DNA from: a virus
Strand: one strand, 5' to 3'
Length of the DNA: 64,000 nucleotides
IMG/VR virus record: IMGVR_UViG_3300022391_000001
Coordinates: 41,470-105,469 of that record
Part shown: positions 7,772 to 35,733 of the stretch, piece by piece
How the letters are laid out: every line of letters begins with the position of its first letter
Numbering within the stretch: the first letter of the stretch is position 1
The notes under the pieces: model-generated
What the model was told of the DNA's origin: nothing
Databases searched by the model: none
The model's input: the letters and a program-made list of their open reading frames with translations, nothing else
Position numbers and translations under genes: made by a program

Positions 7772-7784
7772 CGTCGTTCCCCTC

Positions 7785-9674: not shown

Positions 9675-9704
9675 GGCTGACTCCAAGTTTGATGTGTCCC
9701 TTCT

Positions 9705-9733
9705 ATCATAGAACCAGGCGCTGAAAAAGTCGA
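9705..9733 (-). promoter_or_regulatory. early promoter P4
   Basis: TCGACT-17 nt-TATGAT. Confidence 0.75.
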
Positions 9734-9750
9734 GTGGGAATTGCTGCCAA

Positions 9751-21206: not shown

Positions 21207-24200
21207 TTATGCAGCCCGCGCATGTTTGGCTGACTTTTTCAGGAGCTTGATCGCACCGTTGTTCAAGAAATATTGCCAACTTTTCCTGTCTTTCTTGCGA
21301 TCTAGCTGAATTCGGAGATGATTGCCCGCCTTGATGTGCTTCTTGGCACTCGCGTCCCATGCCGACGCAAAGCAGATCACATCGATGTAGTTGCCAATCC
21401 CGTCGATGATGCCAAAAAAGGCCATTTCATTGCTGTTCTTGTCGTACTTCAACCGCACATGGGTAATGACCCCGGTGAACCAACTGCTCAACCCGAGTTC
21501 AAAGAGCTGATTGGTGATCGCGCTGGCGCGAAGCGTCGTGACCACTTCGCCCTCCGCGCCCTTGTATTTGATCTGCTTGTCGGCCCAAGGGTAGGACACC
21601 GACGGGTGCTGGCCTGCTATGATGCGCTCCCAGACAGTCAGCGGTGCCCCCTCGTTCACCTTCTTGCGGTACACTTCCAGATCCAATAGGAAATGGGCGC
21701 GCAAATTCTCATACCGCGCATTGGCCGACGCGTGAACCACCACCGGGGTCCCAACGCCCGCGTCAACCACCTCACGGAAGTCATCAAAGATGTCAAAGTC
21801 AACCTTGATCCGGTTCTGCTTCCCGCCGACATCCTCCACGTTGACATTCGCATACCTCGCTCCCCAGAACATGTCCCGCCGCTCTTCAGCAGACGGAAGC
21901 TCCCCTGTGTGAAAGTCCCCCACCTGGTTGTACTTCACCTCCACAACAACGCCGACGATGAACACTCCGGCTCCGTCGTTGTTCACCCAAAAGTCTTCAT
22001 CGCTCATGGCGGCGATTGGAACCTTGATGTTCTTGGAGATGAAGTCCCCGTATGCATCAACTGGATGCTTCCCAAAGGCCAGAGGGTTGACCTGGGACGC
22101 GATCAACTGCCGCTCTTCATCGGCATAGTCGGGCTCCGCCGCCCATTGCTTCAGAAGCTCCCGAAGCCCCTCCTTGTCCTTCTTGTTGTACACCTTCCAG
22201 AAGTCTTCAATGCCCTCGATGAACTGCTTGATATTGGGCAACATCTCATCGAGCGCTCCCGCGCGGGCCAGCGCCAAGACCACGCCCTTGTGACACTTGC
22301 GCCGGTCCACGCGGGCAAGGAAGTCAAACAGCCCCTTGTAAGGTTGATTCTCCATGATCGTTGTCGCCGCCGCTTCACCAACACCCTTGATGTCAACCAA
22401 ACTCCCCCGGATGGCCCTGCGTCCCGAGTCAATTGCAAACTGCTTCTTGGACATCGACACAGAGGGTGGCAGCAGCTCGATGTCGTGGCGCTTGACATCC
22501 TTTGCGATCTGCTGGATGCGGAGCCGCTGCGGCTCGTTCTTGAGCAGCGCCCAGTAGAATTCAAGCGGATACTTCCGCTTGAGCCACATCCCCCAATAGG
22601 CGATAACTGCATAACATACAGCGTGAGAGCGGTTGAATCCATAGCTGTTGTGTGATTGAAAATATTGAGGATTTGCACCTTTGGAACAGACCAAATAGTT
22701 GGCTAATTCACCACCGTGCTCACACTCGATGTCCCACATCGACTCCACGCCGATATCTCGGACTTCAACCACAACGGCGGAGCTTCCCAACGCCAACATC
22801 CTCACGCCCGGATACAGATCATTGGCTTTCATCCACCCTTTGTCGGTATTCCACCAATGATCTGGAGAGCAAGCAAGAGTCTGGCCGCCTGTGAGCTTGA
22901 TGTCGAATTGCCGACGCACGCCCGTCCTAGCAACCGTCTTGACTCTGTTTTCGGTTGGCCGCCCCTCGGAATCCAAGGACACGATTGAATCGCCTGGCTT
23001 CAAGTCGCTGATTGCTTTCGTTTCAGCCTGTAACTCCGAGAATAATGCATCGAACACATGTTCTTGCTGTATGTGACTCTGCCGCACCCCAAATAAATGC
23101 ATATCGGCTCTTGCCGTTTTGAGCCCTTCAGATGATAGGATGTGTGCGGCCCTCGTGCTGTTATCTCCAGATTGTCCAGAGTGTTGTTCGTCGTGTCGCC
23201 GTCGATATGATGCACCATCTCTCTGGACAACAGCTTCCGACCAATCATCTTTTCCATGGCCACTCTGTGCTCCAGCTCCCAGCCATTCTCCGTCTTGATC
23301 GTCAAGTAACCATTCTGCTTCCCCTTGTCGCCAATTTTCTTCTTGCAAGTTGGCGCGCCGCGCTCCGTTGTCAACTCTAAATTGTCGATGTCGTTGTTCA
23401 TCGGATCGCCGTCCTTGTGGATCACTTGCTCCCGATTTGTCAACCGCCGGCCTATCTTCTGCTCCATGAGCCATCGATGCTCTCTCACCCATCCCCTCTT
23501 TGTCTTCACATCCATGTATTTGCCGTCGCGTCGGCGGCTCCCTATTGGCTTGGCTTTCGGCATCCTCTTGACTCCCGTTGTCGTTTCGTTTAGCTTCTAA
23601 CGAAACGACAACGCAAGAACAAGAGGGCAAACAACCAAAAAAAGTTATCGCGTCCATCACCCGCCCAGCGGTCTTGGCGTCCATACCGCAAGTTGCCTTC
23701 GCGCCCTCGATGAAATTTTGACGCTCCTTGCCAATAGTCTCGTCGCCCCACTTCTTTGCGATCTTTTTCCTGAGTGAGTCAGCGGTGGCCGGAGGGAACC
23801 CGGCGACCTGTGTGAAAATCTTCAGCACATGCTCCTGGTACACGATGATCCCGAGGGTGTCCTTGGTGATCTCATCTACCAACGGGTGGCCAAAGGCTGA
23901 CTTCTTGATCAGCTTCGGGTCCTTTTTGCGCGCCACGTACTGGGTGGCCAAGCCCGAGCGTGCGGTGCCCGGTCGATTCAGCGCTGTCATCGCAGCGATG
24001 TCTTCAAAGTTGTTGAACTCAACGCCTGAGCAAATCTTGTCGGCGCCCGGGGAATCGTATTGGAAGATCCCCACATAGTCATGGTCTGTGAACCCCTGGA
24101 GCACATCAGGCTCGTTGAGGTCCAACTTCTCCAAGTCGATGTCCACCCCGTGCCGCTCCTTGATCGCCTTCACGCAGTCGTTCAACACGGTCAGAGTCCG

Positions 24201-26078
24201 GAGCCCGAGCACATCGAGTTTAAGCAGCCCCATCGCCGCCACGCCATACATGTCGATGGCGCTGACCACGACATCCTTGCCCTCGTGCTTCCGGATCTCC
24301 AATGGAACCAGATCCGTGAGCGGCACCGGTGATGTAATCACCCCGGCGGCGTGTATGCCGAGGGTCTTGGCCATCCCCTCCAGCCGCTTGGCGTGACGGA
24401 GCACGTCTGGATACTTCGCGTTGAATTCCTGACACACCTTGAATTCAGCGAAGCTGTCCTCAATGGTCTGGCTGGCCCGCTCATCGCCGCTGCTCCGCTC
24501 GATGATCGAAGCGGTGACCGCGTTCACCTCGGCATAGGGCACGTCCAGGACTCGGGACACATCCTTCAGGCACTGCTTCCCTGACAGTTTACCCACTGTC
24601 GCGATCTGACACACCTTGTCGGCGCCATACTTCTCACGCAAGTGGTCGATGATCTCCTGGCGACGCACATCCTCAAAGTCCATGTCGATGTCGGGCATGT
24701 CGATACGACTGGGTGAGATGAACCGCTCAAAGATCAACCCGTGCTCGATGGGGTCCACGGAGGTGATGCCCAGCAGGAATGAGACGATTGAACCGGCGGC
24801 GGAGCCCCGCCCTGGCCCGCAGGCGATGTTCTGGCGTCGCACCCAATCATACAAGTCTCGGACCAGCAGGAAGTAACCGATGAACCTCTGCCGCTTGAGC
24901 GCCCCCAATTCCATCTTCAGACGGTCCCGGTAGATGGCGACGGCTTGGGCCGGCGGCATCTTCATCCGGCGGGCATAGGCGGCTGCCCGGCTCGGGATAT
25001 CCCGCCAGCTCCAACCTCCGATGCACAGCTCTTTCAGGTACTGATACTGCTGTGCATCTGTGGCGTCATATCCGCCATATTCACTCGGGAGCCGAAGCGC
25101 CGGCATCAAGCACGCGAAGCGGTCGATGTTGATGATCTTCGGCTCGATCATGCTATTGAACAGCAGAGTGTTGTCCAATGCCTCCTTGATGACCTTGTCA
25201 GACATGAATTCATGGTTATCTTGGAAGGCTGTCTTCATCTCCGCCCGAGTCCGGAGGTGAAACTCATTGTTGCCGAAGCGGAACCTGTCTGGGTTGGACA
25301 TCCTGTCCCCGGTCCCGATACAGAGCATCACCTCGTGGGCGTCGGCATCCTTCTGGTCGACATAGTGGGCGTCTTGCGTCGCCAACAGGCGTGCGTGCTT
25401 GCCCCAACGCTCCCGGAGATCCAATGCGAATTGGTTGGCCAACCGTTGATCGTCGATGGCGTGCGGTTGCACCTCCAGCCAGAGGTCTTCACCGAAGCGC
25501 TCCCGCAGCTTCTCGGCGTCGGCCAATGCCATCCGCTTCTTGCCCGTCGCAACCCGGTCGTTGATCGGCGATGACAAGCAACCGGTGGCAACCGCCAATC
25601 CGTCGCCGTGTTCCATCAGCGCCTTGAGGTCGATGCGCGGCTTGTAGTAGAATCCCTCTGTCCAGCCCATCGTGGACAGCCGATACAAGTTGCGGAGCCC
25701 TTCGGCGTTCTTGGCCCAGACGGTGATGTGCCACCGGTCCCGGATCCCCCAGTGCTCCTCATACCCCTTGACGGCGTTCTTGGCGTCGGCGCGATTCATC
25801 CCCTGGGTGATCTCCGCCCGCTCTTCAGGCGTGATCCCCTTGCGATGCATGTCCATCGCGACATAGAATTCAATCCCGTATATGGGCTTGACGCCGTGCT
25901 CCTGGCACTCCAACAGCTGCTGGTAATATCCGCGCATCGTGCCGTGGTCGGTGATCGCGATGGCTGGCGCTCCGCGCTCCTTGGTCGCCTTGACATAGTC
26001 GGCGACCTTGCCGCAACCGTCCAATTGGCTCATATCCGCGTGTACGTGCAAGTGGACAAAGTCTTCAGCCTTTGACAC
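21207..26078 (-). CDS. dnaE: DNA polymerase III alpha subunit, intein-containing
   Basis: PHP HLHVH and ITDHG, GRGSAAGS, MPDIDMDF, LLKLDVLGL, YQE, YGFNRSHA. Confidence 0.96.
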   Translation of the reverse strand: MSKAEDFVHLHVHADMSQLDGCGKVADYVKATKERGAPAIAITDHGTMRGYYQQLLECQEHGVKPIYGIEFYVAMDMHRKGITPEERAEITQGMNRADAKNAVKGYEEHWGIRDRWHITVWAKNAEGLRNLYRLSTMGWTEGFYYKPRIDLKALMEHGDGLAVATGCLSSPINDRVATGKKRMALADAEKLRERFGEDLWLEVQPHAIDDQRLANQFALDLRERWGKHARLLATQDAHYVDQKDADAHEVMLCIGTGDRMSNPDRFRFGNNEFHLRTRAEMKTAFQDNHEFMSDKVIKEALDNTLLFNSMIEPKIINIDRFACLMPALRLPSEYGGYDATDAQQYQYLKELCIGGWSWRDIPSRAAAYARRMKMPPAQAVAIYRDRLKMELGALKRQRFIGYFLLVRDLYDWVRRQNIACGPGRGSAAGSIVSFLLGITSVDPIEHGLIFERFISPSRIDMPDIDMDFEDVRRQEIIDHLREKYGADKVCQIATVGKLSGKQCLKDVSRVLDVPYAEVNAVTASIIERSSGDERASQTIEDSFAEFKVCQEFNAKYPDVLRHAKRLEGMAKTLGIHAAGVITSPVPLTDLVPLEIRKHEGKDVVVSAIDMYGVAAMGLLKLDVLGLRTLTVLNDCVKAIKERHGVDIDLEKLDLNEPDVLQGFTDHDYVGIFQYDSPGADKICSGVEFNNFEDIAAMTALNRPGTARSGLATQYVARKKDPKLIKKSAFGHPLVDEITKDTLGIIVYQEHVLKIFTQVAGFPPATADSLRKKIAKKWGDETIGKERQNFIEGAKATCGMDAKTAGRVMDAITFFGCLPSCSCVVVSLEAKRNDNGSQEDAESQANREPPTRRQIHGCEDKEGMGERASMAHGAEDRPAVDKSGASDPQGRRSDEQRHRQFRVDNGARRANLQEENWRQGEAEWLLDDQDGEWLGAGAQSGHGKDDWSEAVVQRDGASYRRRHDEQHSGQSGDNSTRAAHILSSEGLKTARADMHLFGVRQSHIQQEHVFDALFSELQAETKAISDLKPGDSIVSLDSEGRPTENRVKTVARTGVRRQFDIKLTGGQTLACSPDHWWNTDKGWMKANDLYPGVRMLALGSSAVVVEVRDIGVESMWDIECEHGGELANYLVCSKGANPQYFQSHNSYGFNRSHAVCYAVIAYWGMWLKRKYPLEFYWALLKNEPQRLRIQQIAKDVKRHDIELLPPSVSMSKKQFAIDSGRRAIRGSLVDIKGVGEAAATTIMENQPYKGLFDFLARVDRRKCHKGVVLALARAGALDEMLPNIKQFIEGIEDFWKVYNKKDKEGLRELLKQWAAEPDYADEERQLIASQVNPLAFGKHPVDAYGDFISKNIKVPIAAMSDEDFWVNNDGAGVFIVGVVVEVKYNQVGDFHTGELPSAEERRDMFWGARYANVNVEDVGGKQNRIKVDFDIFDDFREVVDAGVGTPVVVHASANARYENLRAHFLLDLEVYRKKVNEGAPLTVWERIIAGQHPSVSYPWADKQIKYKGAEGEVVTTLRASAITNQLFELGLSSWFTGVITHVRLKYDKNSNEMAFFGIIDGIGNYIDVICFASAWDASAKKHIKAGNHLRIQLDRKKDRKSWQYFLNNGAIKLLKKSAKHARAA
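23000..23563 (-). CDS. double-HNH homing endonuclease in the +1 frame inside the intein
   Basis: Two repeats: EHRWLME..VIHKDGDPMNNDIDNL and EHRVAME..VHHIDGDTTNNTLDNL; C-terminal C..GC...CSMHY; GGAG RBS 8 nt upstream. Confidence 0.9.
   Translation of the reverse strand: MPKAKPIGSRRRDGKYMDVKTKRGWVREHRWLMEQKIGRRLTNREQVIHKDGDPMNNDIDNLELTTERGAPTCKKKIGDKGKQNGYLTIKTENGWELEHRVAMEKMIGRKLLSREMVHHIDGDTTNNTLDNLEITARGPHTSYHLKGSKRQEPICIYLGCGRVTYSKNMCSMHYSRSYRLKRKQSAT
23576..23613. promoter_or_regulatory. perfect 15-bp inverted repeat abutting the HNH RBS
   Basis: cgttgtcgtttcgtt-tagcttct-aacgaaacgacaacg. Confidence 0.75.
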
Positions 26079-26128: not shown

Positions 26129-26716
26129 TTATTCGCCCAACCTTGATAGGACTGCGCGCGCCGCGTCGCCTTTGACCACGTTGGTGGTTGTGATATGGCA
26201 CTTTGGAACCGTGATGGAGCGCTCGAACATCAGCGTGAACAGCCGGTCCAGTGTTCTCCAATCGGCCTGCGATGGGAACCACCTCCCCTCGCAGCGCCGC
26301 TTACAAACGTCATAGGCGGCGGTCATCCAAACGTACAGCACATCGCCGCCCTGCTGTGTCATCAGCTCCTGCCAGAATCCCACCAATTTGCGGCTCGCAG
26401 ACAGGTCCTTGTAGTAACCATCCAGATGGTTGTGAAGCACACCATAGGCGACAGCGGAGGGCAGCGAGCGGTCCAATATGACGTTTGCTCGGAGGGTGCC
26501 TAGCAGGTCTGCCGTGAAAAGATCCTCGATGTGGCAGTTCAGAGGTATCCGGAAGTCATCCCTGAGCACTCGCTCCGCGTCGCCCTCGTGCCCCCAATGC
26601 AGATCGGAGTTGCCCCGCCTGAACGGCCGATACACCGGCCATTCAAGCCACTGCGACAGCTCCTGGGCACAAGATGACTTGCCAGTCCCGTTGAGCCCCT
26701 CCAATATGATGATCAC
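26129..26716 (-). CDS. dNMP kinase-like P-loop protein
   Basis: IIILEGLNGTGKS, ILDRS; GTGA overlap with the aminotransferase. Confidence 0.8.
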   Translation of the reverse strand: MIIILEGLNGTGKSSCAQELSQWLEWPVYRPFRRGNSDLHWGHEGDAERVLRDDFRIPLNCHIEDLFTADLLGTLRANVILDRSLPSAVAYGVLHNHLDGYYKDLSASRKLVGFWQELMTQQGGDVLYVWMTAAYDVCKRRCEGRWFPSQADWRTLDRLFTLMFERSITVPKCHITTTNVVKGDAARAVLSRLGE

Positions 26717-27990
26717 AGAGCCAACCCCTTGTGAACAGCATCCACCGCTGCCAATGCCCAAGCCAGATCATTCTCCGGGATGGTCAGCGGCGGTGTGAAT
26801 CGGATAGGCCCGAATTGCCGATGCGTGGCAAACAACAATCCGACTTCCCGCGCCCGATGGATGAACTGAAAACCGTCATATCCATAGGTGTGAAAGTCGG
26901 GCGTGAAGGCGTTGAGCATCCCGAAACCATCGACGCTGGCCACCCAATCATAGCCACCCAACACCGTCCGGATCATCTCCCCCCGTTTACGCACCATCGG
27001 CAAATTGGCATCCAACCATCTGAACATCTCCGCTGCCATGTGACAGACAAAGGGCGAGCCCCCGAAGGTGTTGAAGTGGACTCCTGGAGTGAACGCCTTG
27101 GCGACATCCTCCGACGCCAGCATACAGCTCATCGGGAAACCCATGGCCAAGCCCTTGGCCAGCGTCATGATGTCGGGCTTGACTCTGATCTTCGGGTGCT
27201 GCCACGTGGCGTGATAGCCCGCGCGTCCCGAGCCCGCTTGCACATCGTCATAGATGAGCAGGAAACTGTGCTGCTTGCGTATCCTGGCCAACTCTTGCCA
27301 GAATGCAGGCGGATATGTGTGCACAGTGTTGTTGCCCAAGACGGGTGCGAGAATGACGGCGGCGACTGTGTCCCAATCTGGCGCCTTGGGCTCGTGCTCG
27401 GCGCCGTCTGTAACCACCTGTTGGAGCACCAACTCATCTTCACGCCATCTAGGGTCCAGGACTCCGAAGCCAGCAGCGATGGGCCCAAACCCGTGGCGGT
27501 GATATGGACTGACTCGGAAGTCCCCGGCGGCGAGACTCAGACCGGTGCGCCCATGGAAGTTGCCTTCCATCGTCAAGATGCGGCGCCGCTCTTCATGCCC
27601 CCGGTCCCACCAATACTTGCGCGCAATCTTGATGGCTGCCTCGTTGGCTTCAGTCCCGCTGTTGGAAAAGAAGATCCTGTCCATCTCCGTGCGCTGGCAA
27701 ATCAGCTCCGCCGCTTCCCAGCGCGTTGGATTGGGATAGATGTCAGGGAGCTGGTGCGGAGCCCCGGTGCCAAAGAATTTGAACACCGCCTGAAGAACCT
27801 CCGGCGTGTTGTAGCCCAGCGCGCAGACACCCTCATCCCCCCAGAAATCCAAAAGGCGTTGTTGCTTCTCAACATCCTTGACGGCACTTCCGGCTGCCGA
27901 TTCAACCGTTATCGGCAGCCGTACCACGTTGTTCATCAGACGGCCGTTGTACTTCTCGGTGTTGACCGTCGTGTCCTCATTCTGGTTCAT
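26713..27990 (-). CDS. class III PLP-dependent aminotransferase (ArgD-like, divergent)
   Basis: FSNSGTEANEAAIK, FHGRT, DDVQAGSGR, DIMTLAKG, NTFGG, RFTPPL. Confidence 0.92.
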   Translation of the reverse strand: MNQNEDTTVNTEKYNGRLMNNVVRLPITVESAAGSAVKDVEKQQRLLDFWGDEGVCALGYNTPEVLQAVFKFFGTGAPHQLPDIYPNPTRWEAAELICQRTEMDRIFFSNSGTEANEAAIKIARKYWWDRGHEERRRILTMEGNFHGRTGLSLAAGDFRVSPYHRHGFGPIAAGFGVLDPRWREDELVLQQVVTDGAEHEPKAPDWDTVAAVILAPVLGNNTVHTYPPAFWQELARIRKQHSFLLIYDDVQAGSGRAGYHATWQHPKIRVKPDIMTLAKGLAMGFPMSCMLASEDVAKAFTPGVHFNTFGGSPFVCHMAAEMFRWLDANLPMVRKRGEMIRTVLGGYDWVASVDGFGMLNAFTPDFHTYGYDGFQFIHRAREVGLLFATHRQFGPIRFTPPLTIPENDLAWALAAVDAVHKGLAL

Positions 27991-28946
27991 CGGCCATCCT
28001 TTCTGGTGCCTGTCCAAGGATCCCTGCCCCAGAAGCGTTCATATTGCGTCGCACGCTCCATCATCTCCGCCTTCATCGGCACGTCCACGTTGCCCAATGC
28101 CAAGGGCAAGGGCTCCGTCGTCCATTCGCGGTTGAGATGGAGCGGACACGGTGGCAGCTTGTCGTCCCCGGTCAACCGGCGGCGGCATTCTTCTTTGTAC
28201 ACGCATCCCATGAAGTCATCTCCCGACATGCACGGCGGTGAGACCATCTCCCGGAATATGGGGTGAATCTTCTCGGCGCACTCGTTGATCATCCCCTCGA
28301 TGATGGGCCCCCAAATTCCAAGCTGCAAAATCCAACATCCCCGCTTGCCCACGATGTGCTGCAGCGCTGAGATGTTCAGCTTCCAGCTGATCCGGTGTTG
28401 CGCCCCCAACGGTATCAGCTCCCGAGCATCCTCCATCGGTATCCCTGCCGCCACCAGCGCGTTGTATCCCGCCTGAATCCGCTCCATTGTCGCCCTGTAC
28501 AAGTCAATGAGCGTGCTATCCGGATGTTGCTGAATTGTCAAGGGCAGCCGGTATGCCTCATTGGTGGCAAAGCTCCCCATGTCCTGGATGCGCATCGACT
28601 GAGACCACCATGAACTCTTGGCCAAATCAGGTATCTCATCCATCACTATGTCGGCGCCCACTCGCTCCGGCGAAGGGAGCGTGCCGATCCGATGGCGCAC
28701 CGCCTGCTCCCGCCAAGATACAGAGACACCCTCCAGCATGAACACGAGGTCCACGTGCTCGCCGATCGGGATGCGCTGGGCTATCACCGCCCTGAAGAGC
28801 TTTTCAATCTCTTCAGGGGCCACGTCCCGCTTGATCTCCGCCGGAGTCCGAAGCGGCTCCTCAGTCTTGCTGGCCTCCCACACGCTGTACACCAGCTCCA
28901 AAGGGTCCCGAGTCCAGGTCAGCAGGGTCACTTCCGGTTCATTCAT
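27987..28946 (-). CDS. ThyX-family flavin-dependent thymidylate synthase-like protein (divergent)
   Basis: EH, QAVRHR, SQSMR, EDARELIP, KRGC. Confidence 0.8.
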   Translation of the reverse strand: MNEPEVTLLTWTRDPLELVYSVWEASKTEEPLRTPAEIKRDVAPEEIEKLFRAVIAQRIPIGEHVDLVFMLEGVSVSWREQAVRHRIGTLPSPERVGADIVMDEIPDLAKSSWWSQSMRIQDMGSFATNEAYRLPLTIQQHPDSTLIDLYRATMERIQAGYNALVAAGIPMEDARELIPLGAQHRISWKLNISALQHIVGKRGCWILQLGIWGPIIEGMINECAEKIHPIFREMVSPPCMSGDDFMGCVYKEECRRRLTGDDKLPPCPLHLNREWTTEPLPLALGNVDVPMKAEMMERATQYERFWGRDPWTGTRKDGR

Positions 28947-29716
28947 CGCACAATCTCCTTGAATTCTCTCACCACTTTAACAGGCACCTTGTCCTGCACT
29001 TCTTCAATCTCCAACGCCCCTTGCGGAGCCCCCCGCTGAAGCAAGAACATCGATGACATCCGATGCCACGTCACCACCATAAGTGTGCCAAAGTCGTATC
29101 GCTCCTTGTATTTCCGAGCCACCACCCGAAAGTAGTCAGGCCAGTGATCAGGGTGCATCCCGATGGACTTGTGGTATGACGCCCGGTTCTTGGGGAATCG
29201 GGACAATCCGAAAATGGCGCTGTCGGTGATCGTCACCCACTTCTTGGACGCCTTGAAGATGGCGTCAACCGCGTCCATGTAGCGCTTCTCGGTCAGAAAT
29301 CGGTTGAATGTGAGCTGATTGAAATCGGCGTGCACCCAATCCCAATACCGTTTGGGTTGTTCACCGATGAAAGCATAAGAGTCTGTGACCCTGGCGTTCA
29401 CGTCCGGAAGCGATCGCTTGATGGACATCACGCAATCCTTCTCGATGTCCAATGCCAGGTGCGCCCTTGGTTTGCACAGCTGCTGGATGATGGAAGCGTG
29501 CCAGCCGGAGCCGCCAAACAGTTCCACCACGCGCCCCACCTTGCCCACCTTCTCGGCCACCTTTTGGAATGCGGCTAGCTCCGCGTGAATCTCATGCCGG
29601 CGGATGGCGTAGTGCGAGTGCGGAGCGTCCTTGCCGATCAGCGCCCGCTCTTCATCGCTCGATGAATCGCACACATACATGCGTTGGCCGCCCAGATCAA
29701 TCTCGGTGATGTTCAT
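28943..29716 (-). CDS. class I SAM-dependent methyltransferase-like protein
   Basis: VVELFGGSG (motif I), ALDI, DS, WDWVHAD. Confidence 0.65.
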   Translation of the reverse strand: MNITEIDLGGQRMYVCDSSSDEERALIGKDAPHSHYAIRRHEIHAELAAFQKVAEKVGKVGRVVELFGGSGWHASIIQQLCKPRAHLALDIEKDCVMSIKRSLPDVNARVTDSYAFIGEQPKRYWDWVHADFNQLTFNRFLTEKRYMDAVDAIFKASKKWVTITDSAIFGLSRFPKNRASYHKSIGMHPDHWPDYFRVVARKYKERYDFGTLMVVTWHRMSSMFLLQRGAPQGALEIEEVQDKVPVKVVREFKEIVR

Positions 29717-30635
29717 CCCGGTTCCCTTCGATGGCTTCGGCGGCGCGTTTGACAATAGCAGGCCAATCAGACACCCGTTGAATCAGCCGCGTATCCTTCA
29801 ATTCCCTGTTGTATGGCCAATCCAATAACAGAACAGGCACACCTATGGACGCGACTTCCAGACAATGCTTCACCCGGTCCTCCACAAAGAAGGTTGGGCG
29901 CGCTGGAAAGATGTGCTCATAGATCAATTCTGCCTTGTCTTTCCCGAATAAAATCAAGTCATAGGCCATCCCGTGTTCTCTGAGCCAAAACATCGTATCG
30001 GCATACAGGTTCTTGTATTGCGCATATGGCCGTGCTGTCATCAACACGATCTTGAACCCGAGGTCCCGGATGGCTTGCGTTGCTTCAGAAGCCCCTCTTA
30101 TGGGCGGCAGCTCCCGGAATTGGCCACCCCTGTAGAAATCCTCCTTGAGCGATTCAAGCAGAGCGATGGTCCGATCGTTCATTGGGGCTCCGCCCTGGGC
30201 ACTGTTGAGTTTGTCTTGCCACTCGCTCAAATCGGCCAGGCAGTTGTCCACGTCGATGACAACCAAGCGGGTGGAAGTCTCCAGCGCCAAACGCTCCCCT
30301 CGGGCTCGATCATCGACCACCGCCGACTTCCGCATGAACGAGTCATACAGCCCGTCGGAGTCCACCCCGTACAGCTGCGCGATTGCAATCAGATACTTGA
30401 GCACATCGGCGGCTTCATCAGCCAAATTGACCTGCTCCACGGGTCTGCTCCGGAGCACATGCGCCTTGAAGTGCGTGGCGACCCGCATCAGCTCCGCTGC
30501 TTCTTCAAACATCCCCAAGGCCAAGTCCTTGGACACCCGAGCCCGGTCCATCGGCGACATCGCCGATGGGTCCAGGTTGAACGTCTCTTGCTGTCGCGCT
30601 TGGCGCTTGAACATCTCATCCCATCGGTCGGACAT
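29697..30635 (-). CDS. MazG-like pyrophosphatase / HAD 5'-nucleotidase fusion
   Basis: EEAAEL...DEAADVLKY, then IDVDNCLAD, TARP, FVED. Confidence 0.85.
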   Translation of the reverse strand: MSDRWDEMFKRQARQQETFNLDPSAMSPMDRARVSKDLALGMFEEAAELMRVATHFKAHVLRSRPVEQVNLADEAADVLKYLIAIAQLYGVDSDGLYDSFMRKSAVVDDRARGERLALETSTRLVVIDVDNCLADLSEWQDKLNSAQGGAPMNDRTIALLESLKEDFYRGGQFRELPPIRGASEATQAIRDLGFKIVLMTARPYAQYKNLYADTMFWLREHGMAYDLILFGKDKAELIYEHIFPARPTFFVEDRVKHCLEVASIGVPVLLLDWPYNRELKDTRLIQRVSDWPAIVKRAAEAIEGNRDEHHRD

Positions 30636-31593
30636 CGAACCATCTCTCAGCCAGGTCAATCGCATCCTCCAACACCACATCCATGGTGGAGCGTGAATTC
30701 CATGTCGCAAATCGGCCCAGCGGTGCTATGTTATTTGGCCACTCGGGCTCCACTTCCAACGGCAGCAGATGCCCCTTCAACCCCTCCGTCACTTGATCTA
30801 TGGCCCACCCATCCTGAAAGATGAAATTGAGGTCAGAGTGCATCCTCGGGACATCCAACTGGCCGTTGATCTCCACGGAGTAGCCGGAGCCCGACGGCGA
30901 GAAACGGTGAACGGCGTCGGCAGGGGTGTACGGTGTGTACACATAGTCCCATTGGACGTATCGGTCCCGCAGGGGATGGACCTGGATGACGTTCAGCTTC
31001 ATCGCAACGCCCTCCGGCACATAGAAGTCAGCCATCCGACGCACCGCCCACAACGGAATTGTGACCACGCAGTAGTCATAGGGCACTGACACCCCTGATG
31101 CGGTCTGCAACGCACCACCCCGGATCCCCGTCACCGCCGTCTTCATCACCATGAGCCCACCGGCCAATTTCGTGATCACCTCTGGGAAGTGAGCCCGGAT
31201 GGCCTTGCGGGGCTTGGCTGCCGCCGGATCATTCATCGCCGTCGCTGCGGACTCCGCGTCCGCTTCTGTGCGTCGCGTCTTGCGGTAGTGATCGGCTCGT
31301 ATCCGGGCTGCCTCGGAGCCCGGAAGCGAGTGCAAATATTTGGGATAGGGATGCACCCCGCCGCGAAGCATGATCCCGCCTGAAATCGCATAGTCGCTGT
31401 AGACCACCCCCAATTCATCAAACAGGTTGATCATCCCGATGGTGTGGTGAATGTATTTGAGCCCTCCGGCGAGAAATTCCCCGCCCAAGGCGCCCGACTC
31501 TATCACCAGAACCTCCGCTTGCAGTCGCCTGAACACATACGACGCGATCAGTCCAGACATACCACCGCCGATGAGAACCACGCGCGGTTTCAT
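30616..31593 (-). CDS. FAD-dependent oxidoreductase (protoporphyrinogen oxidase / Glf-like)
   Basis: LIGGGMSG, IE...LGG, YDYCVVTIPL, LGRFATW. Confidence 0.85.
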   Translation of the reverse strand: MKPRVVLIGGGMSGLIASYVFRRLQAEVLVIESGALGGEFLAGGLKYIHHTIGMINLFDELGVVYSDYAISGGIMLRGGVHPYPKYLHSLPGSEAARIRADHYRKTRRTEADAESAATAMNDPAAAKPRKAIRAHFPEVITKLAGGLMVMKTAVTGIRGGALQTASGVSVPYDYCVVTIPLWAVRRMADFYVPEGVAMKLNVIQVHPLRDRYVQWDYVYTPYTPADAVHRFSPSGSGYSVEINGQLDVPRMHSDLNFIFQDGWAIDQVTEGLKGHLLPLEVEPEWPNNIAPLGRFATWNSRSTMDVVLEDAIDLAERWFDVRPMG

Positions 31594-31618
31594 TGATTGC
31601 CCCAATTATTGTTGGATT

Positions 31619-31715: not shown

Positions 31716-32588
31716 TCATACTGGTGGAGGCAACCAGTTTAGTCTACCCTCACGGATCATCCGCCCGTAAACCTGCGCCACAAACCTCGCTCCGTCCTTG
31801 TCGTGATCTGAGGCACGAGAAGTGAAGAAACCATCGACATGCGGGGCCAAGTGGAGCTGTTTGAGTTCAGCTTGAGAAACACCCTTCCACTCCGTCGCTC
31901 GGAGCGGTGTCAAGACATCTACCAGCCCAGTCCGTGGCTTGAAGAGAACCAACGCCAATGGCTGGTCCCGCCCGCTCGATGTTCTCACATAGATTGACAT
32001 GTATTTGCTCTTCTTGCGCCTATCCGATGTGTACAGCCGTCCCGGCAAGAGCGCTTGGGAGCCCTTGGGATACTTGTACGGGATCTGCTCCAGCAACGCC
32101 GCTCGGAAGTGCTCAAAAATCTTGTAACAGTCCAACCGGTTGCGGATCGACAACGCCACCAGCGCTTCCGTCGCCGCGCTCTGCGAACAATCGCGTGGCA
32201 GCCGCTTGTTCTTGCGTCGCCCCTTCGCGCTGCGAATCATGTGTTTGCGTGGTGTTACCTTGGACGGATCCCTCTTGGACAATCCGCCCCGGATGCCCCA
32301 ACGCCGGATGACCTTGTCCAGCTCTTTCATGAACTCGGTGGCATCCTGCTTGGCGATGGCGTAATGATCCTCCACTCCGTCCACCTCGCACAGCTGGATC
32401 TCCACCAAATCGTCCGTGGTCTTCTTGCTTTCCCTCAAATAGATCTGGAAGGCAGCACAGTGGTTCCGCCACAAACAAGGCTCGCTCTGATCCGGATCTT
32501 CGTGCTCCGGTTCCCCGTCACAGGTCTCATCCCCACGCTCGTATTGCCCCACGCAGGGTGGCATGTATTTGTTGGCATCGTCGCTCAT
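31716..32588 (-). CDS. hypothetical protein (N-terminal Cys cluster)
   Basis: AAGGAGG RBS; ATGA overlap with the sigma gene; C..C..C..C motif. Confidence 0.75.
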   Translation of the reverse strand: MSDDANKYMPPCVGQYERGDETCDGEPEHEDPDQSEPCLWRNHCAAFQIYLRESKKTTDDLVEIQLCEVDGVEDHYAIAKQDATEFMKELDKVIRRWGIRGGLSKRDPSKVTPRKHMIRSAKGRRKNKRLPRDCSQSAATEALVALSIRNRLDCYKIFEHFRAALLEQIPYKYPKGSQALLPGRLYTSDRRKKSKYMSIYVRTSSGRDQPLALVLFKPRTGLVDVLTPLRATEWKGVSQAELKQLHLAPHVDGFFTSRASDHDKDGARFVAQVYGRMIREGRLNWLPPPV

Positions 32589-33661
32589 TCTTGCCCCTCC
32601 TTGAGCCGCTTCACCAGGTCCCCATACCAACCTACAGGCACCTTTTCGCGTGCGCCGTCGGCACCGTAGACCACACCTAACAGCGCGTTGAATTTCCCCT
32701 CAAGCACCAATGTGCGGCGGAGCTTCCCCTTGCCCAAGACCAACACCACGCCCCACTCATAACGCTCGATCATCCGAGACCACTCACCGGCTGCCTGGAA
32801 GTGATCCGGCTCCGCCGCGTAGCCCGGAATTGGCCGAGGGTCCAATCCCCTCCGCTCGATCACCTCTGCCACAAACTCGTGATCGTGATAAGGGGCCTTG
32901 CTGATGTGAATCACCGGCCACCCCTTTTCTGCTACTGCCTCGCCAAACAATTCGCTGAATTCCGAGTCATACTTGGCCATTTTTGTGAACAACAAACGGA
33001 TTTTGTGCAAGCTCCAATCAACTGTGTTCTTGGTGACCCCTAAGTAGCGTGCGATGGCGATGCTGGGGACTTCCTTGCTCGCGTCGCCGCCGCTGTTCTT
33101 GATCATCTTCAGCAGCTCCACCGACGGATTGCATCGGGCTGTAAATACCTTCTTGTCCAACCCCGTCAAGGTGTTGAGCAGTCGGAGCTTCATCCGCTTC
33201 GCTTGCGCGTCCAACTCCGCCCAGCTACACACCACCTCGGGCGATTCATCCGACGCTGCCGGCTCATAGCCCCAACCGTCGCCGTCCCATGCGAGCATGT
33301 CATCGAGCGACAACAATGGAAGTGGACGCTTCACGGCGTTGCCGTCGGCGTCGGTCACGATCACAAAGGGAGTCCGACACTGCGCCAGCTCGTGATACAC
33401 CAGACCAAGGTAGGCATTGGTCAGGACGCGGCTGGCATAGGCCACCAAGCCGCCCTTCGCCTTGTTGTAGTCGTATCGCAACAGCGCGCCGAGAAGGGCC
33501 AACCGTCCCTCCTGGATGGCGTCGTCCACGCCGATGGACGGGAGCGAGCGGTGCAACGCCCGGCTCTTATGGAGGATGGCTGGATACACCCTCCGCTCGA
33601 TGTCGGGGTACATCTCCCGGAGCGCTTCAGGGCAGCGCCAGCCCTCTGGGAAGGTGGTCAC
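32585..33661 (-). CDS. phage RNA polymerase sigma factor (sigma70 family)
   Basis: Region 2 DAIQEGRLALLGALLRYD...LVAYA; LSLD; region 4 HTH IARYLGVTKNTVDWSLHKIR. Confidence 0.8.
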   Translation of the reverse strand: MTTFPEGWRCPEALREMYPDIERRVYPAILHKSRALHRSLPSIGVDDAIQEGRLALLGALLRYDYNKAKGGLVAYASRVLTNAYLGLVYHELAQCRTPFVIVTDADGNAVKRPLPLLSLDDMLAWDGDGWGYEPAASDESPEVVCSWAELDAQAKRMKLRLLNTLTGLDKKVFTARCNPSVELLKMIKNSGGDASKEVPSIAIARYLGVTKNTVDWSLHKIRLLFTKMAKYDSEFSELFGEAVAEKGWPVIHISKAPYHDHEFVAEVIERRGLDPRPIPGYAAEPDHFQAAGEWSRMIERYEWGVVLVLGKGKLRRTLVLEGKFNALLGVVYGADGAREKVPVGWYGDLVKRLKEGQE

Positions 33662-35631
33662 GCTGCCACTCCCTTCTTGCCCTTGAGCAACTGGCTCCGC
33701 ATCAGCTTGTACACTTCAACGGCCAATGCCTCAATGTCGTTCACGATGACATGGGTGGCGCCGTGCCGCTCGTTGTAGAAGTCCTGGACGGTCCTGGTCT
33801 GTGCGCCGATCCCAATCACCTCGATGCCCGAGCGTGTGATCTTCTGGATTGCTTCCTTGAGTGCCTTCTCGTTGGTATCTATCGCGACACCGCCGCCTGC
33901 CGGTTGGCCGTCAGAGAGCACGAACATGATCTTGCGTGTCTCGGAGCGCTTCGCCAGCCGCTCCGCGACCATCATCACCGCTTCACAGTCCACGTTGTCT
34001 TGGCGGCCCGTGATCGTCGTGAGACGGCTCCGCACCTTGCGGTAGGACTCGCTGAACGCCTTGAACATGTGGTATTCCATCGGTGCCATGCGGCTGTAGC
34101 CGTCCCGCTCGCAGCGGATACTGTCGCGAGTGCGAGTGTGGAAACCGATGATCTCAAATGGAATGTTCAGCGCGGCGAAAGTCTCACCCAGCGCCACTGC
34201 CATCAGCTTCGCCTGGTATGCTTTGGTGGTGTAGCTGTATCGGCTGTTGCCGTCGCCGTTGCCCATCGAGCCGCTGAGGTCGATGAGGATGCTGATCGCG
34301 GTGTCTAGCTTCTCGCCCTGCTCTTCAACCTGAAACACCGCCCGGTTGCCGGTGCGCACAGAAGCGAGCCTGGAGCTGTCCAACTCGCCGCTCCGCTGAT
34401 CGCCGATGAGCTTGGATGCCGCCCGAGCCCGAATGACGGTGGTGAGCTTGCCCTTCAGCCCTCGGATCTGCGCGGCCACCTTCTCTTTGATGACGTTGTA
34501 CTCCAGGTTGCTGTCGGCACGAGTGTGCGGGATAATCTGTGCATCCGCCGCTGCCGCTTGCGGGTGTGCGGAGTATCGGCGATTGCGGCTGCCGTCGGCG
34601 CGAGCGGCGTCAATCACTTGCTCCTTGGCCAGCTCCATGAGGTCGCCGTTGTCGGCGTCCTTGAGCATCGCTTGGCGGCCAGCTTCGGCGGCTGCTTCAC
34701 GGGCTGCCTCGTCACCTTCGCCACCGCTGTCCTCGGAAGCCCCTCCGCTGCCCGTCTCTGCGTCTTTGTCCTCGCCCTCATCCTCGCCCTTGGACTCGCC
34801 TGAATCCTGGTCTTCTGCGGCATCCTCGTCATCCTCGTCACCAGCGGCACTGGACTCGCCGTCTGCCTCGTCACCCTCGTCACCGGCGGAGCCGCTCTGC
34901 TCGCCCTGCTCACCCTCGGACTCGCCCTGCTGACCCTGCTCGCTCTGCGCTTGGTCGGCGTCTTGGCCCTGCTCGCCCTTCTGCTGCGGCTCGCCCTTCT
35001 GCTGCTCGGGCTGTTCCAGCTCTTCAGCCTTGTCGCCGATCTTCTTGATCGCGCTACGGGCCAGCGCCAGACTGTCGGAGCCCCAACGGGACTTCGGGCC
35101 AGCGGCGATCTCGTCAGCAACGGCGTCCATGTAGGGTGTGAACTCGGCAGGCATCCAGCTCGTGTCCAGGCCGTGCGCCGCGAAGATGATGCCGCACCCG
35201 AGGGTGTGCCAGAAATTCTTGGAGTGATCGGACTTCTGCTGATACTGCCGGACGCTGTTGAGGTTGGCGGCGGCCAAATTCTCCGCCATCCCCGGATACC
35301 TGGCGCTGTACTTGTGCTCAATCCGGATGTCCTCAAACACGTTGAGGAGCATCTTCTCACGATTGGTCCGGCACTTCCGGCAAAGCTGAAGCGGAGTGAT
35401 CTGCCCGGCGTCGGCGTGATCCCGCTCGTCAGCTACGTGCGCCGTCTCGTGGTCGAGAAGCCCGTGGAGAACCTTCTGATCGGCGTCCTTGAGGTGGTCG
35501 GCGTTGAACGGGTACTTGATCGTGTCGCCGTCGGTGCAGCACTCATATCCCGAGGGCACTACGTTGACCTGCCAATTGCGGCTCATCGCCCGAGCGATGT
35601 TCGTGAAAAGGGAGCTTCGGTCTGTGATCAT
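33658..35631 (-). CDS. CobT-like protein: metallopeptidase-like N-domain, acidic linker, vWA domain
   Basis: HETAH..EDIRIE; MIDAS DLSGS; LSDGQP; VIGIG. Confidence 0.88.
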   Translation of the reverse strand: MITDRSSLFTNIARAMSRNWQVNVVPSGYECCTDGDTIKYPFNADHLKDADQKVLHGLLDHETAHVADERDHADAGQITPLQLCRKCRTNREKMLLNVFEDIRIEHKYSARYPGMAENLAAANLNSVRQYQQKSDHSKNFWHTLGCGIIFAAHGLDTSWMPAEFTPYMDAVADEIAAGPKSRWGSDSLALARSAIKKIGDKAEELEQPEQQKGEPQQKGEQGQDADQAQSEQGQQGESEGEQGEQSGSAGDEGDEADGESSAAGDEDDEDAAEDQDSGESKGEDEGEDKDAETGSGGASEDSGGEGDEAAREAAAEAGRQAMLKDADNGDLMELAKEQVIDAARADGSRNRRYSAHPQAAAADAQIIPHTRADSNLEYNVIKEKVAAQIRGLKGKLTTVIRARAASKLIGDQRSGELDSSRLASVRTGNRAVFQVEEQGEKLDTAISILIDLSGSMGNGDGNSRYSYTTKAYQAKLMAVALGETFAALNIPFEIIGFHTRTRDSIRCERDGYSRMAPMEYHMFKAFSESYRKVRSRLTTITGRQDNVDCEAVMMVAERLAKRSETRKIMFVLSDGQPAGGGVAIDTNEKALKEAIQKITRSGIEVIGIGAQTRTVQDFYNERHGATHVIVNDIEALAVEVYKLMRSQLLKGKKGVAA

Positions 35632-35666
35632 GGCTGACTTCCTTGCTTGTCCTTGTCCTATTCCCT

Positions 35667-35695
35667 AGCATAATTGATGCGTGTTCAGAAGTCGA
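35667..35695 (-). promoter_or_regulatory. early promoter P5
   Basis: TCGACT-17 nt-TATGCT. Confidence 0.7.
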
Positions 35696-35733
35696 CCCCA
35701 AATTAAGGCAAAATCGACCTTGGGGGCCAACTA

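Follow-up and report, generated by a model that had tools for sequence, protein, structure and literature searches.

A conserved operon centred on an atypical ThyX enzyme lies directly before the polymerase gene of an uncultured phage, and its six genes suggest that thymidine may be replaced in this virus by a base that bears an amine and is built on the nucleotide, by enzymes new to DNA modification. We analysed a window of 64,000 nucleotides, to which all coordinates refer, together with the complete 105,469-bp genome to which it belongs (IMGVR_UViG_3300022391_000001). In our preferred, tentative reading (probability roughly 0.45), a C5-modified dUMP is synthesised before replication while dTTP and dTMP are removed, and the product feeds DnaE and replaces thymidine. 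That the product is of the aminomethyl type is a guess.

An overlapping operon upstream of dnaE

The six overlapping ORFs of the original prediction are present at positions 26129-31593, immediately before dnaE, and lie on the minus strand. Their starts were refined using homologue alignments and ribosome-binding sites. A second Tmk and a second MazG, also claimed in the prediction, both exist elsewhere. The genes considered here are the following:

30616..31593, minus strand: flavoprotein of the amine-oxidase / protoporphyrinogen-oxidase / UDP-galactopyranose-mutase (UGM) fold, orphan family, 325 aa
29697..30635, minus strand: fusion of an N-terminal MazG-type all-alpha NTP pyrophosphatase and a C-terminal NT5C/HAD 5'(3')-deoxyribonucleotidase
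28943..29716, minus strand: accessory ORF, possible class I SAM-dependent methyltransferase, 257 aa
27987..28946, minus strand: divergent ThyX-fold flavoenzyme of a phage-only subfamily, 319 aa
26713..27990, minus strand: class III (omega-amine:2-oxoacid) aminotransferase, ArgD/OAT-type, 425 aa
26129..26716, minus strand: Tmk/YorR-like dNMP kinase, 195 aa, GTG start
21207..26078, minus strand: dnaE, DnaE-type DNA polymerase III alpha (PHP, DNA_pol3_alpha, finger and HHH domains)
38042-38869: canonical Tmk (Pfam 1.5e-17)
12744-13112: stand-alone MazG (4e-10)
10514-11116: UDG-superfamily glycosylase (PF03167, 2e-29)

From flavoprotein to kinase, neighbouring genes overlap by 20, 20, 4, 4 and 4 nt, and 50 nt separate the kinase stop from the dnaE start. 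Related loci have dnaE in the equivalent position, and the DnaE polymerase is the likely consumer of the operon's product. This translational coupling, directly upstream of dnaE, counts in favour of a module acting on the nucleotide pool.

Distribution of the module

About 25 related IMG/VR phage contigs share five of the genes, those for the flavoprotein, MazG-HAD, ThyX, aminotransferase and kinase. The association persists at ThyX identities down to 41% and in several loci with permuted gene order (aminotransferase before ThyX, or kinase before ThyX), which again supports a pool module. SDR and sulfotransferase genes are variably present as accessories, inserted at differing positions. Because most loci with the module come from a single phage clade (DnaE identity 46-71%), the synteny could partly reflect inheritance rather than selection. 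No cultured phage carrying the module was found.

The original prediction treated all six genes as a set expected to recur in other phages. Five do so, but the 257-aa ORF is patchy, being found only in the window and in L002/L005, L003, L033 and L055 (about five distinct loci), at varying positions within the module. "SAM methyltransferase-like" was also the weakest of the predicted labels: the ORF is present and carries ELFGGSGW, a motif-I-like stretch that is invariant, together with HADFN, in five homologues, but it has no match in Pfam, PHROG or NCBIfam. A PDB profile search aligned only motif I of PCMT (E = 1.2), and ESM Atlas language-model neighbours include methyltransferase clusters at 0.92. 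Given so few loci, the N-methylation step envisaged earlier cannot be part of the core pathway.

A ThyX subfamily without Tyr91

The ThyX-like protein shares its fold with canonical ThyX (TM0449, M. tuberculosis; PF02511, TIGR02170); in Foldseek its AF2 model matches the T. maritima and M. tuberculosis enzymes at E = 1e-6, with 17% identity. It exceeds the Pfam Thy1 gathering score (E = 3.3e-19) but falls below the TIGR02170 equivalog cut-off (53.8 versus 87.9). It retains the FAD-binding motif RHR along with counterparts of S88, R90, E144, R147 and R174, and the residues that bind FAD and dUMP are kept. R174 of ThyX contacts the uracil carbonyl, and the equivalent Arg is invariant in the subfamily. 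In contrast to canonical ThyX, Tyr91 is replaced by Ile in the window protein and by Ile, Val or Leu across the subfamily, and the His53 equivalent is not conserved. About 26 residues are inserted after RHR and before the SxR loop (RHR-x7-S motif), the RxxxxxQ segment has three extra residues, and there is a Cys-rich C-terminal extension of about 100 residues. Canonical Tyr91 and Ser88 are reported to be strictly conserved and critical, Y91 mutants of T. maritima ThyX being 1000-fold slower, and His53 to stack on folate (PMC11940539). Homologues are interrupted by inteins close to the SxR loop and to R202/C204, which would fit a functional importance of these sites.

The subfamily comprises 225 clusters at 50% identity (E <= 1e-30), has members in phage contigs only, and was absent from the 185,579 prokaryote genomes and 50,697 deposited phage records searched. 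It is monophyletic relative to canonical ThyX (support 100/98), which, with the replacement of Tyr91 and the loss of a conserved His53, argues for the pool module. The same subfamily also occurs next to PolA in PolA-type phages, where no aminotransferase, flavoprotein, MazG-HAD or clear kinase lies within 10 kb. ThyX alone therefore does not imply the pathway; it can work without these partners and may be a dTMP synthase that still functions despite its divergence.

Partner enzymes and genome context

The HAD half of the fusion matches Pfam NT5C above cut-off (E = 4e-8), with DxD, T, K and ED invariant in the homologue alignment and human cytosolic and mitochondrial deoxyribonucleotidases as top PDB profile matches (7.5e-7). 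NT5C (PF06941) members of known specificity prefer dUMP or dTMP. The dTMP-specific phosphatase of the dU-DNA phage PBS1 belongs to this Pfam family (PMC12697855), and this shared membership is a further point for the pool module. The MazG half has a weak MazG / PRA-PH Pfam match and invariant EExxE and D..K; its PDB profile matches are small MazG proteins (1e-4), the nearest including DCTPP1, with weak E-values.

By its sequence matches the aminotransferase (Pfam Aminotran_3, E = 1.7e-67) falls, within class III, into the aldehyde/primary-amine branch (ArgD, AstC, OAT, putrescine aminotransferase). The best NCBIfam hit is the argD subfamily, below that family's cut-off, and PDB profiles return acetylornithine, succinylornithine, ornithine and putrescine aminotransferases (3e-98 to 1e-61). 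The PLP lysine (LAKG), DxxQ aspartate and FHGRT arginine are invariant and the PLP site is intact, which together with the branch assignment favours the pool module. In ornithine aminotransferase the FHGRT arginine binds the substrate carboxylate, so its retention keeps an amino-acid substrate compatible.

Pfam signal in the flavoprotein is limited to an N-terminal Rossmann region. The N-terminus matches polyamine and amine oxidases, and the AlphaFold model (pLDDT 89.7) has UDP-galactopyranose mutase, protoporphyrinogen oxidase and amine oxidases as structural matches. Members of this family were found only in these phages. The kinase matches PHROG 761 thymidylate kinase (E = 4e-14) and, in PDB profiles, SPbeta YorR (2e-10) and Aquifex Tmk (1e-9), with EGxNGxGKS (P-loop) and LDRSxxSxxAY invariant; no BLAST-level homologue was found among deposited phages.

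The original prediction saw no ThyA-like hydroxymethylase in the window, and a search of the complete genome likewise found no ThyA. Nor does the genome encode a dCMP deaminase, dCTP deaminase or dUTPase; the lack of ThyA, dCMP deaminase and dUTPase counts for the pool module. No glycosyltransferase of the GT1 family was found, and genome searches for aGPT-Pplase3 and HMUD2 gave no match, a weak result as they had no positive control. Complete exclusion of thymidine is hard to reconcile with the canonical Tmk; in three relatives with loci long enough to cover the syntenic position, this gene was not found there. The stand-alone MazG counts against the pool module. Taken together, the earlier proposal that a specialised set of pyrimidine nucleotide genes supplies the polymerase gains from gene co-occurrence, the loss of critical ThyX residues and the PBS1-family HAD domain, and loses from the stand-alone occurrence of ThyX.

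A proposed pathway

The steps below attach inferred activities to observed gene families. The MazG half would hydrolyse one of the canonical dNTPs, dTTP being the probable one, to its dNMP, and the fused NT5C-type half would dephosphorylate this to the nucleoside, withdrawing the canonical nucleotide from the pool. The ThyX-derived flavoenzyme would bind dUMP and FAD but, because the Tyr91/His53 pair is missing, would not perform normal folate-dependent reductive methylation; it may instead place an oxidised or nucleophile-trapped one-carbon (or hydroxyl) group on C5. The flavoprotein and aminotransferase would then turn that group into a primary amine, possibly from 5-hydroxymethyl via 5-formyl to 5-aminomethyl-dUMP. 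Amine-oxidase-fold enzymes usually target C-N or C-C bonds rather than alcohols, which weakens the hydroxymethyl-to-formyl step; alternatively, an amino-acid adduct could be cleaved oxidatively, MnmC-style. The Tmk-like kinase would phosphorylate the modified dNMP, host NDP kinase would complete the dNTP, and DnaE would incorporate it. In some relatives further tailoring may involve the putative methyltransferase (as in the window phage), SDR or sulfotransferase.

Alternative explanations

The most serious alternative, which we consider unlikely but of real weight, is ordinary nucleotide metabolism beside unrelated auxiliary genes. ThyX would be a divergent dTMP synthase and the kinase a Tmk; the fusion would serve house-cleaning or host dNMP breakdown, like the T5 5'-deoxyribonucleotidase, and the aminotransferase and flavoprotein would belong to the metabolism of amino acids or polyamines, for instance interconverting putrescine and ornithine for DNA packaging. 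The Thy1 score, the retained FAD- and dUMP-binding arginines, the solitary ThyX beside PolA and the lack of any other thymidylate synthase fit this explanation, as do the nearest relatives of the aminotransferase, its FHGRT arginine and the amine-oxidase-like N-terminus of the flavoprotein. Against it stand the subfamily-wide loss of residues whose mutation cripples T. maritima ThyX (PMC11940539) and the sub-cut-off TIGR02170 score. A dTMP synthase beside a dNTPase and a dTMP/dUMP-family nucleotidase would also form a futile cycle, and the aminotransferase and the phage-confined flavoprotein remain in the module across several rearrangements.

Less probable again is a division of labour in which ThyX makes a simple modified dNMP (for example 5-hydroxymethyl-dUMP), the kinase activates it and DnaE incorporates it, the flavoprotein and aminotransferase acting later on DNA or making an amine donor for attachment to the base, as happens in putrescinyl- or glycinyl-thymidine. 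Characterised thymidine hypermodifications are all completed on DNA, with PLP and flavin enzymes, and the flavin-iminium chemistry common to ThyX, MnmG and TrmFO could let a nucleophile trap the exocyclic methylene (PMC8989533). Variable late tailoring would suit the radical SAM/SPASM enzyme directly upstream of ThyX in two PolA-lineage loci, and the aminotransferase resembles enzymes for diamines and amino-acid semialdehydes. However, neither it nor the flavoprotein has an evident DNA-binding domain, the dedicated kinase and dNTPase/nucleotidase point to core modification in the pool, and the missing GT1 and, weakly, aGPT-Pplase3 and HMUD2 argue the same way.

Cytosine is an improbable target. 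The MazG half would be a dCTPase and the ThyX-like enzyme would modify dCMP, as in T4 or 5-hydroxycytosine phages. DCTPP1 is among the weak MazG matches, the ThyX subfamily sequence does not reveal nucleobase specificity, and dCMP has become the substrate of thymidylate-synthase homologues on several occasions (PMC13326640). Yet the fused nucleotidase would consume dCMP, the required substrate; its family's dUMP/dTMP preference, including the dTMP-specific PBS1 member (PMC12697855), the Tmk-like kinase and the invariant R174-equivalent Arg all point elsewhere.

Highly improbable is a genome with uracil for thymine, made by removing thymidine nucleotides and phosphorylating dUMP as in PBS1, DSS3_VP1 and phiR1-37: the MazG, NT5C-type nucleotidase and special Tmk-like kinase follow the PBS1 dTMP phosphatase / dUMP kinase logic (PMC12697855) and dUTPase is lacking, but the phage encodes a UDG-superfamily glycosylase and no dCTP/dCMP deaminase, and the conserved ThyX-fold enzyme, aminotransferase and flavoprotein would be superfluous.

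Comparison with known systems

Synthesis of a C5-modified dUMP in the pool, our preferred reading, follows the same logic as the pre-replicative pathways of T4, SPO1/SP8 and RB69/DLP3, with a partly similar layout in which modifier and YorR/Tmk-like kinase precede replication genes. T4 uses a dCTPase, a dCMP hydroxymethylase and a dNMP kinase, and SPO1/SP8 a dTTPase, a dTMPase, a dUMP hydroxymethylase and a kinase. RB69 and DLP3 have 5-hydroxycytosine clusters in which a thymidylate-synthase homologue adjoins a YorR/Tmk-like kinase, and their MazG-like dNTPase lies elsewhere in the genome (PMC13326640), whereas here it is in the operon, fused to a nucleotidase. The layout and kinase PDB neighbours shared with these clusters count for the pool module. 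Unlike all of these, the window phage has a ThyX-type rather than ThyA-type modifier, a class III aminotransferase and an amine-oxidase-fold flavoprotein as core components, and no glycosyltransferase that we could find.

The HAD half shares PF06941 with the PBS1 Dtm dTMP phosphatase, and PolA-lineage relatives carry a YfbR-like HD nucleotidase (PF12917), as in DSS3_VP1 Dtm (PMC12697855); the window phage differs from these dU-DNA phages in having a UDG and no dCTP deaminase. With the post-replicative systems of phiW-14, SP10, ViI, M6 and PaMx11 the module would share amine-bearing C5 substituents and the use of flavin and PLP enzymes, and in PaMx11 an MnmC-like flavin lyase produces 5-aminomethyl-dU as a known intermediate (PMC8989533, PMC11472151). 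Those phages use a ThyA-type dUMP hydroxymethylase followed by a 5-hmdU DNA kinase and aGPT-Pplase on DNA, none of which was found here. Their PLP enzyme is a decarboxylase rather than a transaminase, and their flavoenzyme is MnmC/DAO-like rather than of the amine-oxidase/UGM fold.

In the tRNA mnm5U pathway, MnmEG, the MnmC oxidase domain and the MnmC methyltransferase domain act in turn to give aminomethyl- and methylaminomethyl-uracil. That pathway acts on RNA and has no counterparts of the aminotransferase, kinase or dNTPase. Its order of enzyme types is the same as in the operon, from flavin/methylene-folate chemistry at C5 through an FAD oxidoreductase to an optional SAM methyltransferase, a likeness at the level of enzyme types.

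The operon upstream of dnaE

The six genes that precede dnaE form a real, conserved and so far undescribed module, which is best classed as a putative variant of pre-replicative base replacement in phages and whose enzyme families have not previously been linked to DNA modification. They belong to a 105,469-bp IMG/VR virus record with direct terminal repeats, rated complete, of which the window takes up bases 41470-105469. The six open reading frames lie on the minus strand between positions 26129 and 31605 of the window. Their real starts, assigned by homologue alignments and ribosome-binding sites, fall at 31593, 30635, 29716, 28946, 27990 and 26716; consecutive genes then overlap by 20, 20, 4, 4 and 4 nt, and dnaE begins 50 nt past the last of them. 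The overlapping, coupled arrangement directly before dnaE that was described in the original prediction is thus borne out. Within the operon block, scans for promoter and terminator consensus sequences gave site counts not above those in shuffled sequence.

Genes of the operon and the polymerase gene that follows them (window coordinates, strand, assignment)
30616-31593, minus: flavoprotein, amine-oxidase-type fold
29697-30635, minus: MazG and NT5C/HAD fusion (Pfam NT5C and motifs)
28943-29716, minus: 257-aa protein, no family match
27987-28946, minus: ThyX-fold protein (Pfam Thy1 and fold)
26713-27990, minus: class III aminotransferase (Pfam and PLP site)
26129-26716, minus: Tmk/YorR-like kinase (PHROG 761 and PDB profile)
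21207-26078, minus: DnaE polymerase (PHP, pol3-alpha, finger and HHH domains)

A canonical Tmk and a second MazG had been placed elsewhere in the window, and both were found on the minus strand: the Tmk at 38042-38869 (Pfam, 1.5e-17), with its start probably at the ATG at 38665 (MFVVLEG...), and a stand-alone MazG pyrophosphatase, distinct from the fusion, at 12744-13112 (PF03819, 4e-10). In three related loci (L002, L005 and L006) the canonical Tmk was not found at its syntenic place between the DNA methylase and primase genes, so we regard it as sporadic. The neighbouring N6/N4 DNA methyltransferase gene (38903-39664, minus; PF01555, 1.5e-32) is conserved in the same three loci, and the phage probably also carries simple methylation.

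The claim that no ThyA-like hydroxymethylase is visible in the window extends to the complete genome, which gave no match to PF00303 in a search whose positive control was found in 10/14 genomes. The complete genome is also without a dCMP/dCTP deaminase (PF00383), a dUTPase or a GT1 glycosyltransferase. Searches for PF18746 (aGPT-Pplase3) and PF18747 (HMUD2), both run without a positive control, gave no match in the genome. The phage, which has no dUTPase, encodes a uracil-DNA glycosylase of the UDG superfamily (10514-11116, minus; PF03167, 2e-29). Upstream of the operon, at 33658-36909 (minus), lie genes for a 657-aa CobT-like VWA protein and a 391-aa AAA ATPase of the MoxR/CbbQ type, separated from it by two conserved ORFs without a family match (31716-33661).

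Contigs of one estuary metatranscriptome run cover positions 26129-31605 whole (share 1.00), and two further runs from 2018 cover them partially (0.27-0.29). The estuary run may be the source sample of the stretch, and an estuarine habitat for the phage is only a lead. The 105-kb genome of the phage apparently stems from the assembly of an RNA-labelled library.

A ThyX-like protein without Tyr91 and His53

At 69.9 bits, the ThyX-like protein scores above the Pfam Thy1 gathering threshold of 24.8, and the best Foldseek matches of its model are the ThyX enzymes of T. maritima and M. tuberculosis (E = 1e-6, 17% identity). Against the equivalog model TIGR02170 it falls below the cut-off (53.8 bits vs 87.9). 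It was compared in an alignment with five canonical ThyX proteins and 26 relatives, and by HMMER with T. maritima ThyX, whose numbering is used here for three-letter residue names. The contiguous RHR-x7-S-x-R-Y signature is absent: RHR (84-86) and S117-x-R119 are kept, with about 26 extra residues between them, a stretch that is disordered in the predicted model. Equivalents of Ser88, Arg90, Glu144, Arg147 and Arg174 are retained along with RHR. S117, R119, R175 and R202, which correspond to Ser88 and the dUMP phosphate/base-binding arginines Arg90, Arg147 and Arg174, are invariant in 11 sequences; the equivalences of R175 and R202 were taken from the HMMER alignment to 1kq4/3g4a.

Two further positions have changed. 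Tyr91 aligns with I120, where the subfamily has Ile, Val, Leu or Met, and in the alignment with the five canonical ThyX His53 aligns with R58, a variable position. PMC11940539 describes Tyr91 and Ser88 of T. maritima ThyX as critical and strictly conserved, and mutation of Tyr91 as slowing the enzyme 1000-fold; His53 is described as packing against the pterin of the folate and forming a hydrogen bond with Tyr91. Judging from its residues, the subfamily keeps nucleotide and FAD binding but lacks the two residues associated with folate handling and methylene transfer. Such a scaffold would still hold FAD against a pyrimidine dNMP, and is unlikely to be an efficient folate-dependent methylase.

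The subfamily comprises at least 560 proteins, with 225 clusters at 50% identity and E <= 1e-30, and is monophyletic relative to canonical ThyX (support 100/98). Within the reach of a pattern search it was not found in 185,579 prokaryote genomes; because the matches there were canonical ThyX only, at 24-31% identity, they give no clue to the host. It was not found in 50,697 deposited phage records either, where tblastn returned distant canonical ThyX only. HNH-endonuclease inteins interrupt six homologues (P0242, P0293, P0317, P0329, P0376 and P0278) at two positions, one close to the SxR loop and the other close to R202/C204, and P0293 apparently has two. A search for fusions of the subfamily to another enzyme gave none that was informative: all the long members checked are intein hosts or carry extensions without a Pfam domain.

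The accompanying enzymes

Sequence models recognise only an N-terminal dinucleotide-binding motif in the flavoprotein. Its AlphaFold model (pLDDT 89.7) has a two-domain amine-oxidase-type fold, with Foldseek matches at E ~1e-14 to UDP-galactopyranose mutase, nicotine oxidoreductase and L-amino-acid oxidase, and its ESM Atlas neighbours agree. The approximately 180 homologues are all unnamed metagenomic proteins.

The NT5C half of the fusion scores above the PF06941 cut-off (33.8 bits vs 24.8) and has invariant HAD motifs I-IV (DxD at 153/155, T225, K259, E277-D278), with a PDB profile match to human cdN, a 5'(3')-deoxyribonucleotidase (7.5e-7). This Pfam family also includes the phosphatase of the dU-DNA phage PBS1, which is specific for dTMP (PMC12697855). 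The MazG half falls below the PF03819 cut-off (16.8 bits vs 22); its E69-E70-x-x-E73 and D102, at positions of the metal-binding motif, are invariant, and its PDB profile matches 2q73/2q5z/2gta at 1e-4.

The aminotransferase scores above the PF00202 cut-off (228 bits vs 30.5) and has an intact PLP site, with K288 (LAKG), D257 and Q260 invariant. It is below the ArgD cut-off (TIGR00707, 233.8 bits vs 410) and every other listed NCBIfam cut-off. Its nearest kin are acetylornithine, succinylornithine, ornithine and putrescine aminotransferases, enzymes that turn a terminal aldehyde into a primary amine and back. It retains the FHGRT arginine, which in ornithine aminotransferase presumably binds the substrate carboxylate.

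The kinase is below the cut-offs of PF02223 (17.4 vs 27) and TIGR00041 (22.4 vs 83) and matches PHROG 761 (4e-14). Its PDB profile matches Aquifex Tmk over the full length (1e-9) and SPbeta YorR over part of the profile (2e-10), and the P-loop EGxNGxGKS and the LDRS motif are invariant. The 257-aa protein is matched by no model of Pfam, PHROG or NCBIfam; it has a motif-I-like ELFGGSGW, a weak PDB profile match (E = 1.2) and ESM Atlas proximity (0.92) to methyltransferase clusters. Among deposited phages, tblastn matched neither the flavoprotein nor the kinase, and found the HAD half alone of the fusion; megablast of the whole operon gave no match.

Two groups of phages

Two scans of IMG/VR produced 46 loci, and profile searches of their ORFs split these into two groups. 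Group A consists of about 25 loci from DnaE phages of ~80-116 kb, with ThyX identity to the window protein ranging from 73% down to 41%. The same searches show that the flavoprotein, MazG-HAD fusion, ThyX, aminotransferase and kinase are kept throughout the group. The gene-neighbourhood survey proposed in the original prediction therefore finds five genes together in about 25 IMG/VR loci; the sixth, methyltransferase-like gene does not belong to this core, being limited to the window, L002/L005, L003, L033 and L055, where it occupies three different positions. The order of the core genes also varies: the aminotransferase precedes ThyX in L006-L009, L035 and L038, and the kinase does so in L008 and L038. 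In locus L051 just ThyX, the aminotransferase and a Tmk-like kinase are present. Two additional genes encode candidate alternative tailoring enzymes of the module: an SDR (NAD-dependent epimerase/dehydratase) between ThyX and aminotransferase (L037:10765-12180) and a sulfotransferase downstream of the kinase (L014:12488-13261).

The roughly 10 loci of group B come from ~40-kb PolA phages. They encode ThyX proteins of this subfamily, with all its peculiarities, and their main clade is nested among group A lineages in the ThyX tree. Here the flavoprotein, MazG-HAD fusion, aminotransferase and kinase are all missing within 10 kb of ThyX, which directly precedes PolA. Upstream are genes for a nucleoside-2-deoxyribosyltransferase-like protein, a YfbR-like HD 5'-deoxynucleotidase and a DUF6378 protein (in L043, at 8552-9061, 9040-9672 and 9650-9955). 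PF12917, the YfbR-like family, also contains the dTMP phosphatase of DSS3_VP1 (PMC12697855). In two loci a radical SAM/SPASM enzyme lies directly upstream of ThyX (L041:8787-9809, L048:8940-9977) and may tailor the same ThyX product by another route. Three loci encode a family-4 UDG (for example L041:4224-4790).

Some assignments in group B were rejected. DUF6378 is not MazG-like by hhalign (probability 0.2%), and a PDB search of the DUF6378 protein gave nothing meaningful; a 180-aa ORF of L048 aligns with kinases over 27 C-terminal columns only. L045 has two ThyX-like paralogues (7742-8650 and 9980-10924), the first of which is very divergent, with the longest branch in the tree and without the region after RHR.

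What the pathway may make

Our preferred reading, to which we give a probability of roughly 0.45, is that the pathway makes an amine-bearing C5-modified dUMP with variable tailoring on top. An amine is favoured because the flavoprotein and the aminotransferase both deal with aldehyde/amine chemistry. The route could run from hydroxymethyl through formyl to aminomethyl, by an MnmEG/MnmC-like trap-and-cleave reaction, or by hydroxylation and then amination. The fusion of a dNTPase to a nucleotidase of the dTMP/dUMP family points to thymidine, not cytidine, as the probable target, since such a fusion is sensible only when the nucleotide it breaks down does not have to serve as a precursor. Any one specific product is improbable.

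A fuller scheme, which we consider doubtful, is that a ThyX-derived enzyme that has abandoned reductive methylation, the omega-transaminase and the amine-oxidase-fold flavoprotein build a pyrimidine dNTP with an amino function (such as 5-aminomethyl-dUTP, in some phages N-methylated) wholly at the nucleotide level, that the fused dTTPase-dTMPase clears thymidine, and that DnaE writes a fully substituted genome. The substrate of the flavoprotein and aminotransferase could be a nucleotide, DNA or a donor metabolite. Our confidence in an amine-bearing product is further held back because group A is mostly one phage clade, because the aminotransferase keeps its FHGRT arginine, and because amine-oxidase-fold enzymes rarely oxidise alcohols.

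Alternatively, and with a lower though appreciable probability, the operon genes could serve ordinary metabolism. Arguing for this, the group B ThyX works without the aminotransferase, flavoprotein and kinase, and its product may be a simple one, or even dTMP formed in an altered way. Counter to this, the loss of Tyr91 and His53 speaks against efficient methylation from folate. A dU-DNA genome is disfavoured: a phage of the PBS1 type is expected to have a dCTP/dCMP deaminase and no UDG, whereas this phage encodes a UDG and its genome has no deaminase match.

If the fuller scheme is true, it would be the first DNA base-replacement pathway known to rest on ThyX, and also the first to rest on a transaminase, and a widespread clade of uncultured ~105 kb phages would carry it. 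A ThyX-type enzyme that lacks residues critical for methylation and is tied by its operon to a transaminase, a dedicated kinase, an orphan flavoprotein and a fused dNTPase-nucleotidase would constitute a new enzymatic route to modified DNA, and could add a new base. With at least 225 clusters and no characterised member, the ThyX subfamily is a large block of viral dark matter that would be annotated by assigning its reaction. Enzymes that make amino-functionalised dNTPs in vivo, with an accepting DnaE, would be useful for labelling and for making DNA that resists restriction or CRISPR.

Relation to known systems

Our literature searches on ThyX with an aminotransferase or with hypermodification in phages returned no paper describing the module. 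To our knowledge, all characterised phage pyrimidine replacement and hypermodification begins with a ThyA-type enzyme, and amine-bearing thymidine modifications are completed on DNA, after replication. The known thymidine hypermodification systems use a ThyA-type dUMP hydroxymethylase, for which this genome gave no match, together with a 5-hmdU DNA kinase and aGPT-Pplase. RB69 and DLP3 have their dCTPase gene elsewhere in the genome (PMC13326640). The operon, in which an enzyme of the thymidylate-synthase superfamily, a dedicated Tmk/YorR-like kinase and a dNTPase are placed before the polymerase gene, shares the logic of pre-replicative pyrimidine replacement with T4, SPO1 and the 5-hydroxy-dCMP system of RB69/DLP3 (PMC13326640).
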